Shown piece by piece: positions 1,337 to 37,634 of a stretch of DNA of 47,140 bases. The translations under genes were made by a program, and so were the position numbers. Under the pieces are notes generated by a model, which saw nothing but the letters and a program-made list of their open reading frames with translations, made no database searches and was not told the DNA's origin. The stretch is taken from the IMG/VR virus record IMGVR_UViG_3300043036_000090, positions 1-47,140 of that record; one strand, written 5' to 3'. The first letter of the stretch is position 1. The number at the start of each line of letters is the position of its first letter. This stretch comes from a virus (Duplodnaviria; Caudoviricetes).

Positions 1337-4300
1337 TTAACTATGTCCAGATACGCTTCCTATTTCAACGTCAATTGTGTTGATACGCATATTTTGAGAC
1401 TTGTCCTTCATTGTTATTGTAAACTTATTTAAGTATCCCACCATATAGTTACCTTGAATTAAAGGGTAAGTTACATTAGGAGTGTTTGTATCACGCATAA
1501 TATGTGCGTATAATCTATTGTCTTCCAATAGGAAATTGCCTTCAAGAATCTGTGTTGCCTGCCCATTTTCATTGGTAATATTAATCTGTAACAAGTTGTC
1601 TTTAACATAATTCTTTTCTCCGTTAGAGTCTGCTGCCTTATTGTAGTCTGTAACATTCATTTCGTGAAGTATAGCCACGTTCAACGGATTGACAGGCAAG
1701 CCACTGTTTAATACCATAGAGATGCTACCATTGTTAGCCGAGCCAAAAAAGGTATTGTATCCTGATTGTAACGACTTAAATATTGTGCTGCCTGATAATA
1801 ACACCATCTTATCTCCATAGCTCTCTGCAAATGTAGGGACAAATGAATAGTCAGCAACCCATCTGTTTAAATTGTCAGACCAGCCAATTGAAGTTGACTC
1901 ACCTAGCATTCCTATAAATAGCATATTGTAGAATGGGTCATAACAGAATCTAGCGATGCCTGACTTACCTAAGAAATAACTCTTTACATAAACATCGCTA
2001 GGAATATCAATGCCTTTATCTGTGTATTTAACAACTTTCTTTGTAAAGTTATCCCACCACCAGATAGTACCCTTGTAGTTCATTACAGACAACTTGTTCT
2101 GCAATCCTAGCCCAGCACCCATATTACGGATAGTACCAATCATATTGGTTGTAAGCGCACGAATAGAAGCGTTATTGCCTTGTGTTAACTCCTGCTCTCC
2201 TAAGAATACGTAAGCCGTTTCTTTAGGGCATAATGCAAGTAGCATAGCTCCATTCCCCTGTAGTCTTGAAGCGCGCTGCAATGATGTAATCTCGCCATTC
2301 TCAATAGGCACCTCGCTGCTATCTAAAGCAAAGAATGAGTTAATGTTATTAACGCTTGTTCCTGCAATATAATTACCTGAGTAGCGAATAGCATTTGTTC
2401 TGCGAGGATACGAAACGTTAGATGCAATAACAGATGGCTTACCAGCAGAAGTGTTCCATTGTTGATTAGTAACTGCATTAGAAAAAGAACGTATTATAAA
2501 CTTCTGATTAGCAGTGGCTAATACAACATCTGGGCTATAAGTTGTATTTAATTTAGGCGTTATTCTGTTGCCTACCAAAGTCATTACACATCCATTACTA
2601 GAGCTTGCCGACTTTGATATATTTACTAATCCAGCAACTACCTGACCTTCCATTGAAAAGTCTAAGGTAATCTTTATTGAGAACTTATCTCCAGCTACAA
2701 TATCTTCCTTAATATCTGTATTAAGATTAATCGCTTTAAGGTAATTAATTTCTAATACAGATGCGCTTGCATTCTGCGTAAATGTCCTTTCGTCAATAGT
2801 AAACTTCTGAGTAAACGCTACAGTCTCTCCGTATTTATTTGCCTTATTGTCGTACGTCGTTTTAAATACCTGTCCAACAAGTCTGTACGTCATACTTCCG
2901 TATGAGGGAAAGTTCGGGTCTGTTGGCGTAACTAACGTAAAAGTATTTGTTGACTTTAAATTAAACTGAACGTTTAGCTTACTTAAACTAGGGGATTGAA
3001 TGCCAACGTCATAGAATCCTGCAACCACAAATGCATCGCTAGCTGTAGTTAGCGTAGCGCTATCTCCGTTAGTTCCTGATGGTATAGCAAAGGTTGGTTG
3101 TAACGTTACCGTGGATGCTGTTCCTGCGTTGTTTAAGGAACTCTGCATAGTTTCACTAGTGATTGAATTAATCACAGTAGATACGTTGTCAACAATAATA
3201 TTAGGAAGAGTCTTAGTTGAGTTGTATTTAAAAGGAGACGTCTGATAAACGGGTATTTCAAGTTTCTTGAATACCATATCTCCAATCAACTTATTGTTGT
3301 TTAGCGTACCTGTCCCTGTTAATACTTTTGTACCTAATCCTGATGAAATATCTATCAAGCTACCATACTCGTAGAACAATAATGACTCGTCTTCTTGTGC
3401 TTGCTTAGGAGAATATATCTCAAAAAACAAATCTTTAGGGATAGGAATAACTGGGTTAGTTAATGCGCCACCTGAGTAATCACAATAAAGCAAGTTGTTA
3501 TTTTGCTGAACAATACGCAAGTCAATTATTTCTCTAGCCGCTGTAGTCCCAATGTTAATTGAGATTCTATCTCCTTCTTGTAGTGTATAAGCTTGCCCTG
3601 CTAAGAACATTCCCATTAAGTCAACCACAAAATAAGTAACATCTTTTAAGTCATCTTTTGTAACTGATTGACTAATGCTAACTACTCTAGAAACAACTTT
3701 AGTCGTAGGATTCTCTTCTAACCTACTTAGCTCAAAGAAAATATTACTAGCAAATCCTTCATAGATATATGACTTGGAAATGTTTTTAGAATATACTAAT
3801 TGTATATACTTTGCCCAAGATGGTTTAGCATATCCAGCTCCCTCCGAAATAGTAATGTTTGGGATAATAGGATAGTCAAACTTGCCTGTGCTAAATTTCC
3901 TGACTGTCTTAGCCTCTACCCCGCGAGTCTTTAATGCAGCATCATAATAAGCTACACCAACTGCATACGTAGAATTGTTTGCAAATGGCTTTGTGTATCC
4001 AGAGCCATCGTAGGAGTCTTCAATGCTGTCAACCTCGATATCAGAGGCGCCAGCATTTAGGTATGTTTTATATGTACCGCCTGACATTGCTGTCTCAGTG
4101 GCTATCGCTACATTTATTTTGGTATTAGCCTCTGTTAAACTGTAATCATCCTGAATGTTTGCTAAGAACAATCTGTTTTTGGCAATCTCAATACTCTTTA
4201 CATTTTCTGGTATAGCATCAAATGGCTTGCCGACTGTAACTAAGTCTAAGCTTTCATTCATCTGTCCTGTGAATTCAACAACAGTTGTGCCAGAAACGTA

Positions 4301-5059
4301 ATCTGCTATCTTTTGCACATCAGCCTTTCTCCAGTTGCCATTGTTGCCTATTCGAACATAAAGTTCAAGGTCTGTTGCATACGTTGGCTTTGCTGAAAAG
4401 TCGTATTGAATTTCATATTTTGCTACACCTTTTTCTCCCTTAAACATCTGAGAGTAATTCCCTAATACAGAATACTCTTTTGACGCATATTGATATCTAG
4501 CGGCAAACTGAAAGTCGTTATTTTCTAATAATGCTAAAGGGGAAGAGCTTATAGTCTTCTTAATTTGAACAACATTGTTAGGGGTTTTTTTCTGAAGCTT
4601 TAAGTCTTCAATAGAAGCAAACGTTACACCTGTGCCACCTGTTAAGTCGTAAGACAAAACAGTCCCACCTTCAGCATAATTCCAGACAATAGTGTTTCCT
4701 ATGACTTTTAAGTCAGGAGCCATCTCGACATCAACTGCGTTGTGGGGATATGTTAATACTGCTGTTGCGGTAAACGCATCTCCGACAGGGGTAATCTTGT
4801 GTATAGTAGCCGTTGCGCCAGCATTATTGCAAAGTACATATATAATATTGTCTACGTTTTGAAATGTAACACGAGGTGTTCCTGCCAAGGTAATCCCTGT
4901 AGAAGCAAAAGATTCCATTAATCTAATTGCCCCAGCACCCCCTGTCTTACCCGAATCAAATACAATGTTAGATGCAGAAACGTAATCACCTTCAGGTAAA
5001 TTGTTTTGAGAAACATCTACGTTCAAACCTCCTGATGCTCTGAGAGTTACCTTCGCCAT
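1337..5059 (-). CDS. Tail stabilisation/muzzle (tail tubular B-like) protein
   Basis: 1240 aa, beta-rich. N-terminus GGLNVDVSQNNLPEGDYVSASN, plus YQYASKEYS and NRLFLANI motifs typical of P22 gp10/crAss muzzle-like proteins. It follows three ring-like genes. Confidence 0.65.
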   Translation of the reverse strand: MAKVTLRASGGLNVDVSQNNLPEGDYVSASNIVFDSGKTGGAGAIRLMESFASTGITLAGTPRVTFQNVDNIIYVLCNNAGATATIHKITPVGDAFTATAVLTYPHNAVDVEMAPDLKVIGNTIVWNYAEGGTVLSYDLTGGTGVTFASIEDLKLQKKTPNNVVQIKKTISSSPLALLENNDFQFAARYQYASKEYSVLGNYSQMFKGEKGVAKYEIQYDFSAKPTYATDLELYVRIGNNGNWRKADVQKIADYVSGTTVVEFTGQMNESLDLVTVGKPFDAIPENVKSIEIAKNRLFLANIQDDYSLTEANTKINVAIATETAMSGGTYKTYLNAGASDIEVDSIEDSYDGSGYTKPFANNSTYAVGVAYYDAALKTRGVEAKTVRKFSTGKFDYPIIPNITISEGAGYAKPSWAKYIQLVYSKNISKSYIYEGFASNIFFELSRLEENPTTKVVSRVVSISQSVTKDDLKDVTYFVVDLMGMFLAGQAYTLQEGDRISINIGTTAAREIIDLRIVQQNNNLLYCDYSGGALTNPVIPIPKDLFFEIYSPKQAQEDESLLFYEYGSLIDISSGLGTKVLTGTGTLNNNKLIGDMVFKKLEIPVYQTSPFKYNSTKTLPNIIVDNVSTVINSITSETMQSSLNNAGTASTVTLQPTFAIPSGTNGDSATLTTASDAFVVAGFYDVGIQSPSLSKLNVQFNLKSTNTFTLVTPTDPNFPSYGSMTYRLVGQVFKTTYDNKANKYGETVAFTQKFTIDERTFTQNASASVLEINYLKAINLNTDIKEDIVAGDKFSIKITLDFSMEGQVVAGLVNISKSASSSNGCVMTLVGNRITPKLNTTYSPDVVLATANQKFIIRSFSNAVTNQQWNTSAGKPSVIASNVSYPRRTNAIRYSGNYIAGTSVNNINSFFALDSSEVPIENGEITSLQRASRLQGNGAMLLALCPKETAYVFLGEQELTQGNNASIRALTTNMIGTIRNMGAGLGLQNKLSVMNYKGTIWWWDNFTKKVVKYTDKGIDIPSDVYVKSYFLGKSGIARFCYDPFYNMLFIGMLGESTSIGWSDNLNRWVADYSFVPTFAESYGDKMVLLSGSTIFKSLQSGYNTFFGSANNGSISMVLNSGLPVNPLNVAILHEMNVTDYNKAADSNGEKNYVKDNLLQINITNENGQATQILEGNFLLEDNRLYAHIMRDTNTPNVTYPLIQGNYMVGYLNKFTITMKDKSQNMRINTIDVEIGSVSGHS

Positions 5060-5091
5060 TTGTTAATTGTTAAAATTAGCCTTGTTAATTG

Positions 5092-5850
5092 TTAGTTCTT
5101 CAAGCTTCCAAAAATACCGTTTCTTATCGAACCTATAATAGTAGCGTAATCCATTGCATTCATACGAGCTCTAAATATTCTTCTAGCGTTTTCGTAGTCT
5201 TGCTTAGCTAATTGATATAAACCAATCTTAGCGCTTTCTGCCTTATATGCCATCATCTGTATGTACTTTGTAATTACATCTGTTGCATACGGCGTCACAA
5301 CGTTAGCTGAAGAGCGTGATACTGCTGAGGTCATATACGTTAAGGTAACCTTAGTAAGAATCATCCCATTGCTAAATACAATTTCTTGATTAGTCTCGTC
5401 AATATCAAACGTTAACTTAGGCATACGCTTACGTCCGTAGTAGCGTCCAACTAATTCACCGCGAGTATTCATATTATTGCTACCTGAAATTAAATTGTAG
5501 TTAATCTCAGCATCGTATTCAACGCTTATGCTAGACTCGTAAGGAATCTTGTCCCCCGCATCATTGTAGTTATACTTCTTGTTTAAATTAAGCTCTCTTT
5601 CCATTGGAAGAACACGCTCCCCGTGCTTAGCTGACACATCAATAAAGTCAACATAGTCCGCTGGTAATATAGCTCTTTGGTAATCTGTTACGTCAAGCTC
5701 AATAATCTTAATGTTACCTAGATTAAAGTCTAAAGACAATTCATCTAAGGCACGAAGTCCGTGGTGCAAGTATCTTGTGTAATAATGCAGCGGAAGCCCA
5801 TTGTCTAACAACGAGTCCCGAACAATTGTATTTAGTGACTTAGTCTTCAT
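5092..5850 (-). CDS. Putative tail ring/adaptor protein
   Basis: 252 aa, helical N-terminus followed by an LPADYVD motif. Position between lysis genes and muzzle as in crAss-like ring proteins. Confidence 0.5.
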   Translation of the reverse strand: MKTKSLNTIVRDSLLDNGLPLHYYTRYLHHGLRALDELSLDFNLGNIKIIELDVTDYQRAILPADYVDFIDVSAKHGERVLPMERELNLNKKYNYNDAGDKIPYESSISVEYDAEINYNLISGSNNMNTRGELVGRYYGRKRMPKLTFDIDETNQEIVFSNGMILTKVTLTYMTSAVSRSSANVVTPYATDVITKYIQMMAYKAESAKIGLYQLAKQDYENARRIFRARMNAMDYATIIGSIRNGIFGSLKN

Positions 5851-30552: not shown

Positions 30553-31194
30553 TTATTTTACTCCTAAGAGGTATTGCTGTTTTACCGTGTAGTAGTCCTT
30601 GCCTTCAATTTTGTTAGTAAAGTTTGAATTTTTTGCAAGAATTACTGTTTGACCTACCTTTGCAAGCACTGGATATTCCTCGCCAACTGGCTTACCAATG
30701 TAACGCAAAATAGCGTAGTCAACAGATGGCTTTTTAGTGATAGATGTTATCAATCCTGAGTCACTCATTACCGCTTCAATCTTCCTGCCACCAACTTCAA
30801 ACGTGTCAAAGTTCTGGTCAACCGTTTGCTCGCAGAGAGTCCAACCTCCAACAGGTAATATGTTACCGTTCCTGACGCTACAAAAAACCCAATAATAAGG
30901 TACTTTATAATAGTTGCCGTAGATACAGTTCGCTTCATCGCTAGTTACTAAATAATGAAAGTATATGATGTCTCCCACCTCAACCTTGTCGTTAATCGTC
31001 TTTCCCTCCTCATCCCACGTTCTTCCGTCTGGTAAGGCAATCACTCTACCGTATATTCTAGCGTGGTGTGTGGGGTTAAATTCAGGGTCTATATGGAGCG
31101 TCATTTCACCAAAGGTAACGGTGTCCTCTAACGACTTTCCAACCTCAACAATGACCGTGTTTGGCGGCGCTTGTTTGATGTCATATTTGAGCAT
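30553..31194 (-). CDS. Tandem GroES-like co-chaperonin
   Basis: Two Cpn10-like units: P..TVIVE..GRVIALP..VEVGDIIYF and PVGGWTL..SGLI..KVGQTVI..KIEGKDYYTVKQQYLLGV. Confidence 0.6.
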   Translation of the reverse strand: MLKYDIKQAPPNTVIVEVGKSLEDTVTFGEMTLHIDPEFNPTHHARIYGRVIALPDGRTWDEEGKTINDKVEVGDIIYFHYLVTSDEANCIYGNYYKVPYYWVFCSVRNGNILPVGGWTLCEQTVDQNFDTFEVGGRKIEAVMSDSGLITSITKKPSVDYAILRYIGKPVGEEYPVLAKVGQTVILAKNSNFTNKIEGKDYYTVKQQYLLGVK

Positions 31195-31891: not shown

Positions 31892-31920
31892 TTTCGTCTA
31901 CACATTTGCCCTATATGTCG
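31892..31920 (+). promoter_or_regulatory. Putative operator/activator site, copy 1
   Basis: TTTCGTCTACACA-N9-TATGTCG, repeated with identical spacing at 35018-35046. Confidence 0.5.
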
Positions 31921-31969
31921 GCACATTCTACCATTTCGTCTCATCGCCTTGTATTATCTAATCTGACCT

Positions 31970-32000
31970 ATTGCACTCTAAAGAAATCCCATTACCTTTG
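31970..32000 (+). promoter_or_regulatory. Rightward early promoter
   Basis: ATTG (31970-31973), 19-bp spacer, TACCTTTG (31993-32000). Predicted transcription start near 32005. Confidence 0.7.
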
Positions 32001-32004
32001 TCTT

Positions 32005-32323
32005 GTTGTCAGGGAAAAATGAGATACTTGATGACTAGGGTTAAAGAATCCTACAATGTTAAGGTCTACCCGAAAGGGTCTTAGCGACAGGTCTAACCCA
32101 CCTTTGGAAACGACAAAAGACACCACGTTATTACGGAAGTAGGCGGTTGGCTCGATTGGGATAGTAATATCCAATGGCATTGGTTTGAAGTTCTAGAAGA
32201 AAGGGTTGCTAAATAAACCCATCGCTGAGTAAACGGCGTCACAAAATCCCCACCCGTGCAAGGGTTATGCACAAGCGTACGATTGGAAAGGTTAACGGCG
32301 GTTCGATTCCGCTACCAATCGCT
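32005..32323 (+). ncRNA. Highly structured leader/ncRNA ending in a tRNA-like T-arm/acceptor domain
   Basis: Back-to-back stems at 32005-32035, 32036-32053, 32057-32086 (GAAA loop), 32131-32142 (GGAA), 32155-32175 (GTAA), 32203-32220, 32223-32238 and 32252-32265. These are followed by CGATTGG..GGCGG-TTCGATT-CCGCT-A-CCAATCG. Confidence 0.65.
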
Positions 32324-32325
32324 AC

Positions 32326-32347
32326 CCTTTTGGTGTAGGTCAACCAA
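32326..32347 (+). promoter_or_regulatory. Early-gene leader hairpin/pseudoknot, copy 1
   Basis: CCT-T-TTGGT-GT-AGG-TCA-ACCAA, 12 nt before ATG 32360. Confidence 0.75.
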
Positions 32348-32359
32348 CTTGAAAAAATT

Positions 32360-32902
32360 ATGTTACAATCAGCAAAAAACCTAGTAAAATTTGTAGAAAA
32401 AGTAAAGCCAAACGAAGACGCAATCATCTCAATGGGCATCAGAAATGATGGCGAAATTGATGCATTCTTCTACCTTCACAAGGGTAATGGTCGTGAGATA
32501 TTTGCTAAGCTAATACATTGCGCAACATTGCAGTTAGTACAGCGCGACACCGACAAGTACATTGACCTAGAGGGTATGTATGAGGGGTATAAGCTACGGG
32601 TTACGTTCTTAAATGAGCGTGACCAAGTTTGGGTTGACCCGAAAGAGGGATATCCTGAGGCGGTAAAGAATTGCGAATATTGGAACTATTTAACTGCTGA
32701 AGAGTGGAAGTCGTTTATGAAGGAGTTCTACTCAATTAACAAGTACGTAGGTCAAGAGGGTACGGGGGCATTCCAAAAGTACCTAAAGGAAAAAGCAGAC
32801 AAAGGTTTCCGCTCAATAATTATGGGAGCATTTATATTTGCCAACACATCTGAAGAGAATGTGTGGTATGAAATATGTGACCGCACTCAACCAATCGTTT
32901 AA
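32360..32902 (+). CDS. Early hypothetical protein (180 aa)
   Basis: First ORF of the rightward arm. Confidence 0.7.
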   Translation: MLQSAKNLVKFVEKVKPNEDAIISMGIRNDGEIDAFFYLHKGNGREIFAKLIHCATLQLVQRDTDKYIDLEGMYEGYKLRVTFLNERDQVWVDPKEGYPEAVKNCEYWNYLTAEEWKSFMKEFYSINKYVGQEGTGAFQKYLKEKADKGFRSIIMGAFIFANTSEENVWYEICDRTQPIV

Positions 32903-32926
32903 CAATTTATCACTAACAACAATTAA

Positions 32927-32950
32927 CCTTGCGGTGTATAGGCAACCGCA
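32927..32950 (+). promoter_or_regulatory. Leader element, copy 2
   Basis: CCT-TGCGGT-GTAT-AGG-CA-ACCGCA, 8 nt before ATG 32959. Confidence 0.8.
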
Positions 32951-32958
32951 TAACTTTT

Positions 32959-33141
32959 ATGAAAACTTTTATCTATTCATTAATCATTTCATTTGTTGTA
33001 TTGTACGTAGGCATTGCATTCGTATCATTCGATATCAACTTCCTAGCAGTAGCGGGAACGGCGGGTCGTTTTGCATTGCTATTCTTCACGCTAATCTTTG
33101 CGGTGCTAGGCACAATATGCATCGAGGAGACTAGAGACTAG
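32959..33141 (+). CDS. Small two-TM membrane protein (60 aa)
   Basis: MKTFIYSLIISFVVLYVGIAF...FALLFFTLIFAVLGTICI. Start re-assigned to the ATG after the leader element. Confidence 0.7.
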   Translation: MKTFIYSLIISFVVLYVGIAFVSFDINFLAVAGTAGRFALLFFTLIFAVLGTICIEETRD

Positions 33142-33190
33142 TGTAACTGACGAGGCTTGATGAGCCGAAACGCCTACGGGCGTCTTACAC
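33141..33190 (+). ncRNA. Hammerhead ribozyme, type I
   Basis: Stem I GTGTAA/TTACAC, core CTGACGA, stem II GGCT/AGCC, GAAA, stem III CGCC-TACG-GGCG. Cleavage triplet GTC with the predicted cut after C33184. Confidence 0.93.
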
Positions 33191-33198
33191 AAACTTAT

Positions 33199-33220
33199 CC
33201 TTTCGGTGTAGGTAACCGAA
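33199..33220 (+). promoter_or_regulatory. Leader element, copy 3
   Basis: CCT-TTCGGT-GT-AGG-TA-ACCGAA, 10 nt before ATG 33231. Confidence 0.78.
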
Positions 33221-33230
33221 ACCAAACATT

Positions 33231-34163
33231 ATGTCAGTATCAAGAAATGCAACACGTCAAATCAATTCATTGTTGAACGCTCAAGGCAACGAGTCAATGT
33301 TCGCACAACGCACCAAGAGTGTAGATGACCTATTAGCTAAGTCATCCCAAGACAACGTATTCGTGACCAACGAAGTTATTCAAATGCAAGAGTTAGTCGG
33401 TATGCCGACACGCAAGGGACTAGAGCAGGGGATTGTATCCAACGGCAAGCTAGTTAATGTGGTATCCAAGTCATACGGACACCTGCCTAACGAGGTATTC
33501 TTTTTAGAGGCTGAGCGCAAGTTGATTGACGCGGACATCTATTACAAGTCACGCTCAATCAATCGTGATGACCGCTCCTTTGCAGTTGATTATGTGCTAG
33601 CAGATGACCGCTACAAAATTGAGGTTAAGGGAGACAAGGATATCCTATTCCCAATGCTACGCTTCACTAACTCGTACGACGGGTCAAACAAGACTAGCGG
33701 TTCATTTGGAATGTATCGCAAGGTATGTGACAATGGCTTATGCATTGCACAAACGCAGATTGGATTCAGCGTAAAACATACGGGTTCAATCGCTGAGATT
33801 GTCTTACCTAAGTTAGACGAATTGGTAGCCAACTTTATGGACAACGAGTTCTTTTCGCTCAAGAAGAAGTTTGACCTACTAGCTGAGGCGCGTGTGTTAA
33901 ATGTAGAGAAGTACGTGCAAGACATCAACAAGAAGTTGAGCCTAATCAAGTACGAGTCATCAGACAAGAATCCTGCACCTAGCTTGAACGCTCGCTTTAT
34001 CCTAGATGTAGTGAACCGCGAGACTAAGCAGTTGAACGTTCGCCCTAACAAGTGGATTGTGTACAACGCTTTCAACGAGTTACTGCACAACAAATTGCAG
34101 AAGACTTTTGACCAACAAAAGACTATCGATGAGCGTTTGTTTGACCTTATCCTTGCATCTTAA
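33231..34163 (+). CDS. DUF932/DUF945-like phage/plasmid protein
   Basis: VVSKSYGHLPN, LRFTNSYDGS, RKVCDNGL, KHTG and WIVYNAFNE motifs. Confidence 0.75.
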   Translation: MSVSRNATRQINSLLNAQGNESMFAQRTKSVDDLLAKSSQDNVFVTNEVIQMQELVGMPTRKGLEQGIVSNGKLVNVVSKSYGHLPNEVFFLEAERKLIDADIYYKSRSINRDDRSFAVDYVLADDRYKIEVKGDKDILFPMLRFTNSYDGSNKTSGSFGMYRKVCDNGLCIAQTQIGFSVKHTGSIAEIVLPKLDELVANFMDNEFFSLKKKFDLLAEARVLNVEKYVQDINKKLSLIKYESSDKNPAPSLNARFILDVVNRETKQLNVRPNKWIVYNAFNELLHNKLQKTFDQQKTIDERLFDLILAS

Positions 34164-34184
34164 TTTTCCACTAGCAACAATTAA

Positions 34185-34208
34185 CCTTGCGGTGTATAGG
34201 CAACCGCA
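34185..34208 (+). promoter_or_regulatory. Leader element, copy 4
   Basis: Identical to copy 2. 34169-34210 matches 32911-32952 at 41/42 nt. Lies 11 nt before ATG 34220. Confidence 0.8.
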
Positions 34209-34219
34209 TATTATCTAAT

Positions 34220-34495
34220 ATGAAAACACAATTCGAACAAGCGGTTGAGCAAGCTAGATTAGGTAATCTACGTACGCCAAAAGTTTTTGCGGGAAATGGT
34301 AACGTTGATTATTTCTCATATCAATTAGCGGTACACAAATTCAACCTAAGCATTATGGCTTCGGGTATGACTTGTAATGGAATCAAGTTTACGGATATCA
34401 AAAATTACTACGGACTCAAGGGTCGTTCGGCAAAGGCTTGCCTACCACAATTCCTAGAGGTATTTGAATCTTACAAGCAATCACTAAACAACTAA
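34220..34495 (+). CDS. Early hypothetical protein (91 aa)
   Basis: MKTQFEQAVEQARL..., start re-assigned to the ATG after the leader element. Confidence 0.7.
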   Translation: MKTQFEQAVEQARLGNLRTPKVFAGNGNVDYFSYQLAVHKFNLSIMASGMTCNGIKFTDIKNYYGLKGRSAKACLPQFLEVFESYKQSLNN

Positions 34496-34502
34496 AAATA
34501 AA

Positions 34503-34526
34503 CCTTGCGGTGCATAGGTCAACCGC
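34503..34526 (+). promoter_or_regulatory. Leader element, copy 5
   Basis: CCT-T-GCGGT-GCAT-AGG-TCA-ACCGC, 8 nt before ATG 34535. Confidence 0.8.
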
Positions 34527-34534
34527 TAACTATT

Positions 34535-34750
34535 ATGCAAAATAAAAAACCATTGACCGCAAAAAAGTTACTAGAATTTTTATTAGAAACTGAGAAGCAA
34601 TTTGATTTGAGCAATGTGCATATCTATTATAGATACGATAGGGATTCAGAAGAGGAGGTAGTTTATGAGGTAGAAGAAGACCTATACGATGAAGATGATA
34701 ACGCGACGCTCACATCTATTATGTTCTATACAAATAGCGAAGAGATTTAA
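34535..34750 (+). CDS. Small acidic early protein (71 aa)
   Basis: MQNKKPLTAKKLLEFL...DSEEEVVYEVEEDLYDEDD. Confidence 0.7.
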   Translation: MQNKKPLTAKKLLEFLLETEKQFDLSNVHIYYRYDRDSEEEVVYEVEEDLYDEDDNATLTSIMFYTNSEEI

Positions 34751-34758
34751 AACTAAAA

Positions 34759-34781
34759 CCTTGCGGTGGTGGTCAACCGCA
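34759..34781 (+). promoter_or_regulatory. Leader element, copy 6
   Basis: CCT-TGCGGT-GGT-GG-TCA-ACCGCA, 7 nt before ATG 34789. Confidence 0.78.
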
Positions 34782-34788
34782 TAAGAAA

Positions 34789-35067
34789 ATGCCTAGATGG
34801 AATGATGAATCCCTAAGAGTTTACAAGGAGAACTCGCAAATAGTTATCCTAGCAAGAAAGTATTCGGAAAAGCATTGGTATAAGTGCGATGCCAACGAAG
34901 AGCATACCAAGATATATAATCTATGCAAGTACGCCATATTCAACGACCAACTTACAATCAAGCAAGCGGGTTGGCTGAAGGCATACCTTCGCCGAAACAA
35001 CGTTGACGAATCTGAACTTTCGTCTACACAAATAGCACTTATGTCGACTAATTCGGCACAACAATAA
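34789..35067 (+). CDS. Early hypothetical protein (92 aa)
   Basis: ORF following a leader element. Confidence 0.65.
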   Translation: MPRWNDESLRVYKENSQIVILARKYSEKHWYKCDANEEHTKIYNLCKYAIFNDQLTIKQAGWLKAYLRRNNVDESELSSTQIALMSTNSAQQ

Positions 35068-35084
35068 TATCCGTCCTAAATTTG
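35018..35084 (+). promoter_or_regulatory. Operator-like repeat copy 2 plus -7 box TAAATTTG
   Basis: TTTCGTCTACACA-N9-TATGTCG (35018-35046) and TAAATTTG at 35077-35084. The -33 element is weak (TTCG). Confidence 0.5.
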
Positions 35085-35109
35085 GGCATCAACTAAAACA
35101 AACAACATT

Positions 35110-35307
35110 ATGGAATCTAAATATGATTACGACTTTTTTTTATTTAGTCAATTGGTTTACGCTCAAGGAGATAAGCTAAGTGAATTAGAGTACGACTATG
35201 CATTTGAAGAAATTGTCATTTTATACAAGGACTTTTTAGCATCAAAATTTAACGTATCAACCAAAGGGTTATACGAATGTATTGTCGACTATCTTAATCA
35301 AATGTAA
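35110..35307 (+). CDS. Small acidic hypothetical protein (65 aa)
   Basis: ORF with A/C-rich leader. Confidence 0.65.
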   Translation: MESKYDYDFFLFSQLVYAQGDKLSELEYDYAFEEIVILYKDFLASKFNVSTKGLYECIVDYLNQM

Positions 35308-35317
35308 TAATCTAAAA

Positions 35318-35341
35318 CCTCACGATGTATGGGACAATCGT
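35318..35341 (+). promoter_or_regulatory. Leader element, copy 7
   Basis: CCT-C-ACGAT-GTAT-GGG-ACA-ATCGT with compensatory stem changes, 12 nt before ATG 35354. Confidence 0.75.
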
Positions 35342-35353
35342 AGATTATCTAAT

Positions 35354-35590
35354 ATGATAAATGAATTATTAATTAACACTCACTACGCAAACTTGCAAGA
35401 CGAGTTAGATGTGTGGTATGGCAGTCAGCCATTTAGTAAATTAGAAAAGATACACGACCTAAACAAAAACGATTTGTTTGGTCGGACGGATTCTGAGTTA
35501 GAAGAGATTCTATCAGAACTAGAAGATGAGTGGGTTGAGTGGTCAACCGACACCAAGGTAATGTGGTACAATCAAATTATGGGATACTAA
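35354..35590 (+). CDS. Small acidic hypothetical protein (78 aa)
   Basis: MINELLINTHY..., start re-assigned. Confidence 0.65.
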   Translation: MINELLINTHYANLQDELDVWYGSQPFSKLEKIHDLNKNDLFGRTDSELEEILSELEDEWVEWSTDTKVMWYNQIMGY

Positions 35591-35603
35591 ACTAAATAAA
35601 CCG

Positions 35604-35756
35604 ATGCCAAAACAACAAGCAATCGTTGAAGCAATCAGCGAGAATCTAGAAGAGTTAAGAACTCATTTAGATTATAGAAAGTATACGGCGGAAGATTTTT
35701 CCGAAGAAGAAAACTTGATAAATAATATTGAAATCCTTTTAATGCAATTGCAATGA
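35604..35756 (+). CDS. Small acidic protein (50 aa, not in ORF track)
   Basis: MPKQQAIVEAISENLEELRTHLDYRKYTAEDFSEEENLINNIEILLMQLQ, with an A-rich leader. Confidence 0.55.
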   Translation: MPKQQAIVEAISENLEELRTHLDYRKYTAEDFSEEENLINNIEILLMQLQ

Positions 35757-35814
35757 GCGAAGAAGATATTGCGCACCTTATGTGGGTGCTGAACAACAAC
35801 CGATAATCTAAGAA

Positions 35815-35837
35815 CCTCACGATGTATAGGCAATCGT
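35815..35837 (+). promoter_or_regulatory. Leader element, copy 8
   Basis: CCT-C-ACGAT-GTAT-AGG-CA-ATCGT, 10 nt before ATG 35848. Confidence 0.78.
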
Positions 35838-35847
35838 TAACCAAGCA

Positions 35848-36048
35848 ATGAAACATTTTTTATCAGGCGAGCAATTCGCAACACTGAAAAACAATAATTG
35901 GGACGTCAAGCCCGATGGTATGTATGTTCATCTATACCGAGATGAATATAACGAAGACCTATGGGAGCTAATCTGCTACCAAGCAGAAGTAGATGCCGAC
36001 ATAGATAAGTTAACACTCCTTGTATTTGGAACAATGACAAACCTTTAA
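35848..36048 (+). CDS. Hypothetical protein (66 aa)
   Basis: ORF following a leader element. Confidence 0.65.
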   Translation: MKHFLSGEQFATLKNNNWDVKPDGMYVHLYRDEYNEDLWELICYQAEVDADIDKLTLLVFGTMTNL

Positions 36049-37282: not shown

Positions 37283-37585
37283 ATGAGAGAATTAATGAAC
37301 ATTTACTTGACACGTTTTGGCGAAGAGAAAGAAATCTTTGCACCTAATACTAAGTGGGCTAACGTTGAACAATATGACAAGCAGACTAAGTACATCGTTG
37401 AGTATAAGTTATTTATGCACGACGAACTTATTGTTGGAAAGTATATTGGATGTACGGATGGTGCAAAGTCGCTATTGTTTACCGACCTAAGCCGACCACG
37501 CGAACACAAAGAGTTTGATAATACTAGACACGTTGTCTTGGCTATCCCGACTCAAAATATTAGCAGTATTGTTATTGCTAAATAA
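37283..37585 (+). CDS. Hypothetical protein (100 aa)
   Basis: ORF with A-rich leader. Confidence 0.65.
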   Translation: MRELMNIYLTRFGEEKEIFAPNTKWANVEQYDKQTKYIVEYKLFMHDELIVGKYIGCTDGAKSLLFTDLSRPREHKEFDNTRHVVLAIPTQNISSIVIAK

Positions 37586-37634
37586 ATAAATTGGTATAAC
37601 TTTGTTTGACTCCGCTGTAATTTTATGGCGGGGT
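37574..37634 (+). promoter_or_regulatory. Promoter of the replication operon plus 5' hairpin
   Basis: ATTG (37574-37577), 19-bp spacer, TAACTTTG (37597-37604). An 11-bp stem ACTCCGCTGTA/TATGGCGGGGT (37609-37634) sits at the predicted transcript 5' end. Confidence 0.65.

Follow-up and report, generated by a model that had tools for sequence, protein, structure and literature searches.

Why phages place self-cleaving ribozymes between their small genes is a question that has been standing since 2011. In that year, Perreault et al. described hammerheads flanking prophage genes and proposed that they process long transcripts (PMC3088659), and the account given in a 2019 review still has the purpose of phage hammerheads as undefined (PMC6765202). 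The window analyzed here, a whole stretch of 47,140 nucleotides, belongs to an uncultured phage whose signals read as being of the Bacteroidota type. Its early region holds a hammerhead, a leader RNA with a tRNA-like end, and a short element repeated in front of start codons. The first-pass annotation had proposed that host tRNA-processing nucleases and self-cleavage cut one early transcript into units, each beginning at a pseudoknot right before the ATG. Comparison with related loci points to another arrangement, likely one of interchangeable cutters and an independent start-codon element rather than gene-by-gene dicing at pseudoknots.

Layout of the early region

The features of the early region are listed in Table 1. 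As had been claimed, a promoter is present upstream of the leader of about 320 nt. By sequence reading, it consists of TTG (31971-31973), 19 nt, and TACCTTTG (31993-32000), which we take to be a match to the Bacteroidota -33/-7 consensus; it was absent from the sigma-70 scan output. From these boxes, transcription would start near 32006. A box resembling this promoter was found at the same place upstream of the leader in most of the element-bearing relatives. A single early transcript had also been assumed. Since three relatives (L001, L002, and L091) have a box similar to the second one of -7 type at 35077-35084, the stretch may give more than one transcript. The ORF at 35110 has no start-codon element.

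Table 1. Coordinates of the RNA features, promoter boxes, and genes in the early region of the window
Feature	Position	Strand	Remarks
Bacteroidota-type promoter	31971..32000	+	-33 TTG, 19-nt spacer, -7 TACCTTTG
Non-coding leader RNA body, about 275 nt	32006..32280	+	Homologues and two-sided changes
Two hairpins, leader 3' domain	32203-32220 and 32223-32238	+	Alignment of 8 sequences
Small H-type pseudoknot, leader 3' end	32249..32272	+	3-bp and 5-bp stems
tRNA-like domain	32281..32324	+	Acceptor-like stem and T-arm (12 positions); predicted RNase P substrate
Element 1	32326..32347	+	12 nt upstream of ATG 32360
First early ORF, 180 aa	32360..32902	+	No Pfam or PHROG family; homologues in relatives
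Element 2	32927..32949	+	9 nt upstream of ATG 32959; no cutter 5'
Hydrophobic ORF, 60 aa	32959..33141	+	TAG stop overlaps first base of hammerhead stem I
Type I hammerhead	33141..33190	+	Core and stems; predicted cut after C33184
Element 3	33199..33219	+	14 nt past hammerhead cut; 11 nt upstream of ATG 33231
DUF932 protein, 310 aa	33231..34163	+	54.5% identical to Flavobacterium phage 1H/6H-group proteins
Element 4	34185..34207	+	12 nt upstream of ATG 34220
Element 5	34503..34526	+	8 nt upstream of ATG 34535
Element 6	34759..34780	+	8 nt upstream of ATG 34789
Candidate internal -7 promoter box	35077..35084	+	Upstream of ORF 35110; -33 box not evident
Element 7	35318..35341	+	Second stem allele; 12 nt upstream of ATG 35354
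Element 8	35815..35837	+	Second stem allele; 10 nt upstream of ATG 35848

When Rfam was searched with the complete window at E up to 1, and with 31900-36000 and 34150-34250 at E up to 10, nothing but hammerhead matches below the threshold and chance hits came up. A blastn search of 31900-33300 against 50,697 GenBank phages gave four matches, all by chance. Among the 37 pattern hits in the genome collection, about half were apparent chance matches in GC-rich coding sequence, and these were left out. The gene order of the region is shuffled among relatives.

The leader RNA

The whole non-coding leader ends in a tRNA-like acceptor/T-arm domain. Its body has homologues in relatives, the three closest being L075, L078, and L096, and comparison with the homologues revealed two-sided changes in 14 of 48 predicted pairs. 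The folding energy was no better than that of shuffles, with z values of -0.97 for the whole leader and -1.27 for its 3' part. Support for the earlier description of the leader as structured therefore comes from the covariation among homologues, because the folding energy alone did not exceed the shuffles. In the alignment of eight sequences, the hairpin at 32223-32238 was 100% paired, with two-sided changes in 4 of 5 pairs, and that at 32203-32220 was 70% paired. Both stems of the leader pseudoknot were also 100% paired in eight sequences, with two-sided changes in 1 of 3 pairs of the 3-bp stem and 3 of 5 pairs of the 5-bp stem. The topology of this pseudoknot is identical to that proposed for the start-codon element, and its end lies 1 nt upstream of the paired -1 base of the tRNA-like domain in six homologues and 7 nt upstream in the window.

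No shared ORF or conserved leader peptide was found in the leader homologues, and neither the window leader nor the mosaic leaders of the relatives matched an Rfam family. An antisense role was rejected, the longest minus-strand match of the leader within the window being 11 nt. The leader bodies are about 190-480 nt long, mosaic, and structured, and they occupy the first-transcribed slot. A 9-mer, which the window leader does not carry, was present in 16 of 24 leaders. In host-phylum genomes, the 9-mer lay in rRNA operons at 6 of 10 examined sites, 5 of them in the 16S-23S spacer, the position of boxA.

The tRNA-like domain and the host nucleases

The tRNA-like domain has no anticodon arm. 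Its acceptor stem, stacked on the T-stem over 12 positions, comprises six Watson-Crick pairs and one mismatch (A-A at 7/66), and the T-loop consensus is present on a paired T-stem at 32298-32312. The domain was the best hit in the window of mini-tRNA model R1 (17.6 bits, E of 0.05); the model had been built without it, and the match covers the T-arm only. Among 37 parsed tRNA-like hits, position 74 was C in 32 and a full CCA was present in 9; in the window, G32321 corresponds to position 73 and is followed by CTA. The tRNA-like units had two-sided changes in 10 of 13 pairs, a level reached by 0 of 500 shuffles, and T-arm covariation was present in the homologues of the domain. According to a pairing-aware parse, acceptor pair types vary across 10 leaders. 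Because the acceptor pair 3:70, T-A in the window, is variable among leaders, there is no fixed aminoacylation identity. ARAGORN found no tRNA in the window and Rfam gave no tRNA match; a tRNA or tmRNA gene was rejected on these results, together with the variable 3:70 pair and the lack of a shared ORF. Furthermore, the tRNA-like domain is used without a leader, because stand-alone mini-tRNAs lacking a leader body recur upstream of many genes; in one related phage, eight tRNA-like units stand ahead of successive small genes.

With the last base of the tRNA-like stem at G32321 and the first base of element 1 at 32326, the reported adjacency within 5 nt is correct. On geometric grounds, cutting by RNase P at 32280/32281 is more likely than a processed end at 32322-32325, as RNase Z would leave it, so that the predicted cut likely falls near 32281 rather than at the proposed 32322. 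Model substrates made of acceptor and T-arm are described as being cleaved by RNase P, which gauges a length of 12 bp and base-pairs with the RCCA at the 3' end (PMC11143913). Of 81 Bacteroidota-phylum genomes, only 36 had RNase Z above the family cut-off and 0 had full-length RNase J above the cut-off.

The start-codon element

Eight elements of 21-24 nt, all on the + strand, lie within 3.5 kb, each 8-12 nt upstream of an ATG. A loose element descriptor gave 12 raw hits in the window, corresponding to 10 sites, compared with a mean of 4.1 and a maximum of 10 in 30 shuffles. The 49-nt repeats enclosing elements 2 and 4 are 94% identical. The 5-bp stem of the element covaries: in 136 of 158 contexts, which were collected without demanding pairing of the four stem positions, all four positions were Watson-Crick. 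At least 11 paired stem alleles occurred among 20 allele pairs, and the loop length was variable among relatives. Pairing was counted by script, because the 3' strand was wrongly placed when 24 elements were aligned with MAFFT. The crossing CC/GG stem of 2-3 bp was invariant, with CCT/AGG in 194 of 197 contexts and no compensatory form, and its inner pair was T-A in 57 of 63 and T-T in 5 of 63. Since the CC/GG stem never varies while the 5-bp stem covaries, an H-type pseudoknot is plausible rather than demonstrated. What stands of the repeated pseudoknot before the ATG is therefore the series of eight elements with a covarying 5-bp stem, the crossing stem being without covariation.

The distance from element to ATG was 6-14 nt in 161 of 174 contexts without an SD-like word, and its spread (IQR 8-11) was narrower than that from the stop codon to the element (IQR 8-20). 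Only 1 of 33 other window genes had an SD-like word. An SD-like word lay downstream of the element in 17 contexts, no ORF start lay within 45 nt in 27 of 218, and the element was directly upstream of a tRNA-like sequence at two Streptomyces loci. These contexts do not fit a pure initiation role.

The element is also present in unrelated phages. A host-chromosome origin was rejected, as only 3 of 301 phylum genomes matched and one of these was the centre genome. No Rfam family matched the element. Neither the element nor the mini-tRNA was described in the literature covered by our search, mainly open-access, and a prior listing outside Rfam is possible. In F. johnsoniae, initiation is reported to be generally reduced by structure close to the start codon (PMC7797042), and the element could dampen rather than aid initiation. 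It is a short, widespread phage motif situated where structure should hinder Bacteroidota initiation. Should it aid initiation, it would represent a new kind of SD-independent signal, and it could serve as a small tool with which expression in Bacteroidota is tuned.

Hammerhead and pistol ribozymes

The hammerhead core CUGAnGA...GAAA...UH is intact (33147-33153, 33167-33170, and 33183-33184). Stem I (33141-33146/33185-33190) has 6 bp and an open end, and stem II (33154-33166) and stem III are hairpins closed by loops; the sequences of these two stems differ among relatives with pairing kept. The match to Rfam RF03152 was 20.7 bits, below the gathering score of 56.3; the assignment as a hammerhead is based on core and stems rather than on a curated model. 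Stem I formed in the shorter local fold; in the longer one its probability was about 0.15, because pairing is possible between the core and the beginning of the ORF that follows. The predicted cut site after 33184, 14 nt upstream of element 3 (33199), has the geometry described earlier, and the intact core makes self-cleavage there likely. Moreover, two pistol ribozymes were found in a Prevotella-bin contig (Prevotella prophage), each just upstream of an element.

Coupling of the modules in relatives

Leader, tRNA-like domain, and element were jointly present in 24 of 42 loci and jointly absent in 18. This all-or-none pattern needs at least three changes on the tree and suggests more coupling than independent modules would. 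All 11 clade hammerheads were upstream of an element, at 10-16 nt, but these hammerhead and element copies are near-duplicates and do not represent 11 events. Internal mini-tRNAs were upstream of an element in 7 of 11 cases, at 14-19 nt. However, no recognizable cutter was found upstream of 6 of the 8 elements in the window and 69 of the 91 in relatives. Among unselected phage hammerheads, found regardless of the downstream sequence, only 2 of 139 preceded an element. Of 24 leaders, only 13 had an element no more than 40 nt past the tRNA-like end, 11 being without; none of the 3 closest homologues of the window leader had one. Thus, the proposed adjacency of cutter and element is kept in relatives for the hammerheads and in part for mini-tRNAs and leaders. 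The idea of one system agrees with the joint presence and absence but not with the cutter-less elements and the element-less hammerheads, and the elements occur in part independently in related genomes. A transcript cut into units that each begin at a pseudoknot is not supported, given the many elements lacking an upstream cutter.

The cutters were also exchanged in front of the same genes. Homologues of one gene had hammerhead and element upstream in L078 and L081, mini-tRNA and element in L076, L098, and L118, leader end and element in L104, and the leader end alone in L096. DUF932-type starts were preceded by hammerhead and element in the window and L083, or by a mini-tRNA in L071, L072, L096, and L104. 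Sister phages express homologous early genes without any of these RNA modules.

Proposed mechanism and alternative explanations

We place somewhat more belief than doubt in a model of three separable RNA modules, namely two interchangeable cutters and a repeated 22-nt element, a stem and probably a small pseudoknot, that likely helps to set initiation. Host RNA polymerase would start near 32006, as judged from the promoter boxes. RNase P would then measure the 12 acceptor and T-arm positions and cut at the 5' side near 32281. This would release a leader RNA of about 275 nt with its own pseudoknot at the 3' end, and the tRNA-like fold would stay on the message and cap its 5' end with paired bases. 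In hosts having RNase Z, a second cut after 32321 is possible. The hammerhead would self-cleave during transcription and yield a DUF932 message with a 5'-OH located 14 nt upstream of element 3, so that two cuts would give three message pieces, not eight. The element lies at the position that a Shine-Dalgarno helix would occupy in other bacteria; in an SD-blind host, its position and stem make the loading of ribosomes onto its own gene, which starts 8-12 nt downstream, the most likely point of action, with or without a cut upstream. The modules would be copied and shuffled together with small genes, which would explain their clustering. Several observations weigh against this model: the imperfect tRNA-like domain of the window, with its mismatch, CTA in place of CCA, and a model match confined to the T-arm; the low probability of hammerhead stem I in the longer fold; the lowering of initiation by structure in F. 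johnsoniae; the element contexts at odds with pure initiation; the sister phages that lack the modules; the invariant CC/GG stem; and the all-or-none presence across loci. A bolder version, tentative and in our estimate unlikely, is that the element binds the 30S subunit where the SD helix would otherwise be, or binds bS1, and so positions the start codon, that it forms a cassette with the cutters, and that the mosaic leaders freed by RNase P are a new class of phage small RNAs. If true, phages of SD-blind Bacteroidota would possess a portable, structure-based ribosome-recruiting signal, and cutters plus element would be a plug-and-play unit through which early genes are expressed once they have been acquired.

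Decay can enter a message at upstream cuts, as in RNase E scanning, and the element may mainly be a nuclease barrier that shields cistrons from such decay, with little effect on initiation. It lies on the 3' product, 10-19 nt past a hammerhead, pistol, or mini-tRNA, the leader RNA also ends in a pseudoknot of its topology, and in SD-type contexts it is upstream of the SD and twice upstream of a tRNA-like sequence. Nevertheless, a mere barrier has no need to sit 8-11 nt from the ATG, 137 of 139 hammerheads are without an element, and a block to a 5'-3' exonuclease is not needed because RNase J was over the cut-off in none of the 81 phylum genomes; we regard the barrier as possible but doubtful. 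The integrated system of the first-pass annotation, with the pseudoknot active only on freed 5' ends and other nucleases acting before the six cutter-less elements, is quite improbable. The all-or-none loci and the clade hammerheads agree with it, and A/U-rich gaps ahead of plain elements could be endonuclease sites. However, it must accommodate the cutter-less elements, the leaders and unselected hammerheads without an element, and the near-duplicate nature of the clade copies.

The leader RNA itself may be the goal, as a trans-acting small RNA, a tRNA decoy against host defence, or an antitermination loader, with segmentation as a by-product. The size, mosaic structure, and first-transcribed slot of the leader bodies and the rRNA-operon 9-mer would suit such a role, which we consider rather unlikely: the window leader lacks the 9-mer and has no antisense match above 11 nt to the window, stand-alone mini-tRNAs recur before many genes, and the 3:70 pair is variable. 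Finally, the repeats may be DNA-level sites, either operators or PeSL-like recombination cassettes, with the RNA pairing incidental. The near-identical 49-nt repeats and the shuffled gene order are consistent with this, and PeSL recombination is described as shuffling genes in RB49/phi1 (PMC2839356). The many paired stem alleles, the variable loop length, the single orientation, the fixed distance to the ATG, and the lack of a promoter or T-run inside the element make DNA-level sites very improbable.

Comparison with known systems

Several known RNAs resemble one part of this region. DUF805 (RF03081) and DUF805b (RF02914) were rejected, neither matching any of the eight elements in the window at E up to 10; true RF02914 hits were found in two host bins as a positive control. 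In three RF02914 hits, as in the element, a GTAGG word and a short pairing of the form xCC/GGx are present, but the element is the smaller of the two and its distance to the ATG is about 10 nt instead of about 20 nt. Flavo-1 (RF01705) gave 0 covariance-model matches at E up to 10. The bacterial Y RNA YrlA, described as having a Ro60 gene within about 2 kb (PMC4201824), was rejected, since the neighbouring ORFs are not Ro60 and no Rfam hit was obtained. The SAS of Cluster K mycobacteriophages is likewise a short oriented repeat just 5' of the ATG of non-structural genes, for which that report proposes an initiation role while leaving the function undefined (PMC3203893). That report places the SD core inside the SAS and takes the repeats on its flanks not to pair as RNA; here, AGGAG is absent from all eight elements, which covary as a stem in an SD-less lineage, and identity with SAS was rejected. 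The T4-type PeSL cassettes also shuffle as repeated regulatory cassettes among small early genes, but are described as holding a promoter and a terminator stem-loop (PMC2839356). The element holds neither and was rejected as a PeSL: no + strand terminator was called at any of the eight elements, and a -7 box was upstream in 4 of 218 contexts.

The tRNA-like domain can be compared with the t-elements of plant mitochondria (Forner et al. 2007, PMC1920247) and with mascRNA/menRNA (PMC4919922). In these accounts, RNase P and RNase Z are guided by a non-coding tRNA-like fold with a consensus T-arm when they form the ends of an mRNA or lncRNA, and a long RNA ends just upstream of the tRNA-like unit, as the leader would here. 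In contrast to these accounts, the units here are 44 nt long, lack an anticodon arm, and are repeated upstream of genes, in phage DNA with a bacterial host and with ends predicted from sequence only. In phages P1 and P7, RNase P frees the non-coding C4 antisense RNA from an early transcript (cited in PMC4919922); here, no antisense target and no Rfam c4 match were found, and the RNA body that would be freed is not the same from one relative to another. With a tRNA mimic at their ends, the variable leaders can be regarded as candidate small RNAs of phages.

There is also a likeness to the prophage hammerhead clusters, which lie between variable small phage genes and for which the cutting of long transcripts into operon- or gene-length mRNAs was proposed, the same idea as here (PMC3088659). 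Segmentation of phage messages by hammerheads was thus already proposed in 2011. Relative to that description, the slot here can instead hold a tRNA-like minihelix or a pistol ribozyme, and in the clade a conserved start-codon element follows the cut. That hammerhead, mini-tRNA, and pistol replace one another in nature ahead of the same element and gene suggests selection on the cut, not on the cutter, and the swapped cutters are naturally matched constructs for testing.

Genome setting and promoters

The promoter, the tRNA-like end, the hammerhead and the eight start-codon elements were all found where the first-pass annotation had placed them. The window is a linear virus record of 47 kb (layout in the table). 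Its DUF932 protein is 54.5% identical to Flavobacterium psychrophilum phage proteins and an SD-like word precedes 1/33 other window genes; the host is thus probably a member of Bacteroidota. The GroES-like-domain protein (213 aa; 30553-31194, - strand) is conserved and lies upstream of the terminase genes.

Coordinates of the features in the window
Feature	Position	Strand	Description
Structural genes, terminase, GroES-like gene	up to 31194	-	
Small early genes, replication initiator, DnaB		+	
Promoter	TTG at 31971; TACCTTTG at 31993-32000		
Small pseudoknot in leader 3' domain	32249-32272		both stems vary in concert
tRNA-like domain	32281-32324		T-stem of five pairs with consensus T-loop; acceptor stem of six pairs and one mismatch
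Hammerhead	predicted cut after C33184		core intact, 6-bp stem I

We take the sequence at 31971-32000 to be a Bacteroidota-type promoter, downstream of which transcription would start. A possible internal promoter at 35077 would add another transcript start. A second consensus promoter of this type (37575-37604) precedes the replication genes. The 12 nt at its start are identical to a leader hairpin's loop region (32206-32217), possibly by chance. A repeated short word (TTCGTC plus 2-5 nt; 31893, 31935, 35019) precedes the main and the possible internal promoter, as well as promoters in sister phages that lack the RNA modules, and is a candidate operator.

Distribution of the RNA modules among relatives

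Relatives were found via the flanking GroES-like gene (alignment A2), so the RNA parts were not a selection criterion. Fifty-one loci (L numbers) were returned; 41 and the window were examined, and the other 10, which matched distantly or came with little sequence upstream, were dropped. In 24/42 loci the leader ends in a tRNA-like domain and at least one element is present, the tRNA-like domains of L091 and L104 being read separately from the main tabulation. The other 18 had no element and no hammerhead, and a tRNA-like model search of 17 of them gave no match; there are near-duplicates among the 42 loci, and six of the negatives are shorter than 2 kb. Several of the 18 have homologous early genes whose starts are plain and A-rich. 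On the tree of 41 rows the presence/absence label requires 5 changes, at least 3 of them by well-supported branches. The module set thus comes and goes as a unit, although exchange of the entire early region by recombination would leave an identical pattern.

The start-codon element

Each of the eight elements lies 8-12 nt before an ATG. Pattern scans detected the element in many unrelated viral contigs and Bacteroidales bins, and in only 3/301 sampled phylum genomes. When contexts were collected with a descriptor that ignores whether four positions of the 5-bp stem pair, all four were Watson-Crick paired in 136/158, and 11/20 stem allele pairs were paired, compared to at most 9 in 5000 permutations; the crossing CC/GG stem was invariant. 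Among 218 contexts, 174 had an ORF start without an SD-like word (161 of these at 6-14 nt), 17 had an SD-like word, at 11-43 nt in total, and in 27 no start followed within 45 nt. Interquartile ranges, taken over 19 less redundant loci, were 8-11 nt from element to ATG and 8-20 nt from upstream stop to element. Element-bearing starts carried A at -3 in 52/91 cases and at -6 in 67/91. The element may function in initiation.

Ribosomes of F. johnsoniae ignore SD and prefer low structure and A at -3, -6, -12 and -13 (excerpts of PMC7797042). Given this preference, an element stem ending at -8 to -12 has to be accommodated, melted or inhibitory. In L142 and L157, 2501-2524 (two Streptomyces genomes), the element stands 2-3 nt before a tRNA-like sequence, not an ATG; L133/L151 carry tandem copies, in one or two cases with no start codon.

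Leader RNA

The leader had been called structured. Its folding in the window was no better than that of shuffled sequences, but covariation in homologues backs the fold. Leader bodies in relatives measure about 190-480 nt and fall into several families with only patches in common; in the window's family (with L075, L078 and L096), 14/48 predicted pairs showed two-sided changes. The 3' domain was 93% paired across eight sequences, with 9/22 pairs changed on both sides; slid controls gave 35-53%, and 0/500 shuffles were as high, a figure that is not a probability because the sequences are related. In six homologues its pseudoknot stops 1 nt short of the tRNA-like domain's paired -1 base. The leader RNA that a cut would free may itself have a function.

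A 9-mer present in 16/24 leaders (e.g. L071, L083, L076) and absent from the window's leader was located within rRNA operons at 6/10 fetched sites in host-phylum genomes, which suggests that such phages may use rRNA-type antitermination. The 9-mer matches host 16S-23S rRNA spacers, often after a conserved 12-nt word, at presumably the boxA position. A 16-bp palindrome resembling a chromosomal parS site follows the tRNA-like domains by 10-30 nt in L070, L071, L072, L091 and L092; it occurs twice in L071 and L072 and is absent from the window. The leader of L004 (228-830) is longer, at about 580 nt, and contains two parS-like palindromes as well as two T-arm domains.

tRNA-like domains and ribozymes

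Neither Rfam nor ARAGORN reported anything above threshold in the window. In its tRNA-like domain G32321 occupies position 73, followed by CTA; position 74 was C in 32/37 parsed matches, one of the 37 probably being spurious. Besides leader ends, relatives carry stand-alone 44-nt mini-tRNAs, whose alignment (22 units) showed two-sided changes in 10/13 pairs. In one phage, L385 (G006; 2085-5790, - strand), eight tRNA-like units precede successive small genes, mostly with a short hairpin next in place of the element.

RNase P cleaves acceptor plus T-arm substrates, with 12 bp measured from the T-loop and pairing with RCCA (excerpts of PMC11143913). RNase Z exceeded the family cut-off in 36/81 phylum genomes and RNase J in 0/81, a sample of unestablished genome completeness. 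From these substrate rules and the RNase Z count, the main cut is predicted at 32280/32281, by RNase P, with 32322 secondary.

The same element and gene are preceded by a hammerhead in some relatives and by a mini-tRNA in others, the two replacing each other. In a Prevotella-bin contig, two pistol ribozymes each precede an element.

One system or separable modules

The first-pass annotation had the early transcript cut into units each starting at a pseudoknot, with three kinds of structured RNA as one system. Of the window's eight elements, just 1 and 3 have a cutter (tRNA-like domain or hammerhead) upstream, so three transcript pieces are predicted, both cuts and the enzyme being putative. 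Coupling of cutting and elements is favoured by the block presence of leader, tRNA-like domain and element across loci, by the hammerheads of the clade, all 11 of which lie 10-16 nt ahead of an element, and by 7/11 internal mini-tRNAs within 19 nt of one (two more precede a variant element after an insert). However, 69/91 elements lack a cutter; of 139 phage hammerheads whose cut site could be assigned, taken from 133 of an estimated 520 loci, only 2 precede an element, both from the window's clade, and most run directly into a start region. Moreover, an element follows the leader end within 40 nt in 13/24 leader loci and in 0/3 closest homologues. Full integration is therefore improbable: the arrangement is real and more general than first seen, but looser than one system.

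We lean, somewhat beyond even chances, towards separable modules in which the element has an initiation role. That the element is instead a barrier is possible but doubtful, and a purpose centred on the leader, compatible with the other readings, is marginally less probable still. A DNA-level role of the repeats seems very improbable.

Comparison with known systems

The main interest lies in an uncatalogued start-codon element, natural cutter swaps and mosaic leaders. Our literature search found no account of the element; the supplement of PMC5737381, outside that search, may bear on novelty. Flavo-1, DUF805 and DUF805b were ruled out as its identity, although DUF805b has a similar layout. The element also differs from SAS (PMC3203893), PeSL (PMC2839356) and STAXI (PMC2864571). 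Clustered hammerheads have been proposed to process phage transcripts, with cleavage shown for other loci (excerpts of PMC3088659), and the purpose of phage hammerheads has been called undefined (excerpts of PMC6765202). For the tRNA-like cut, t-elements (PMC1920247) and mascRNA (PMC4919922) provide the model.
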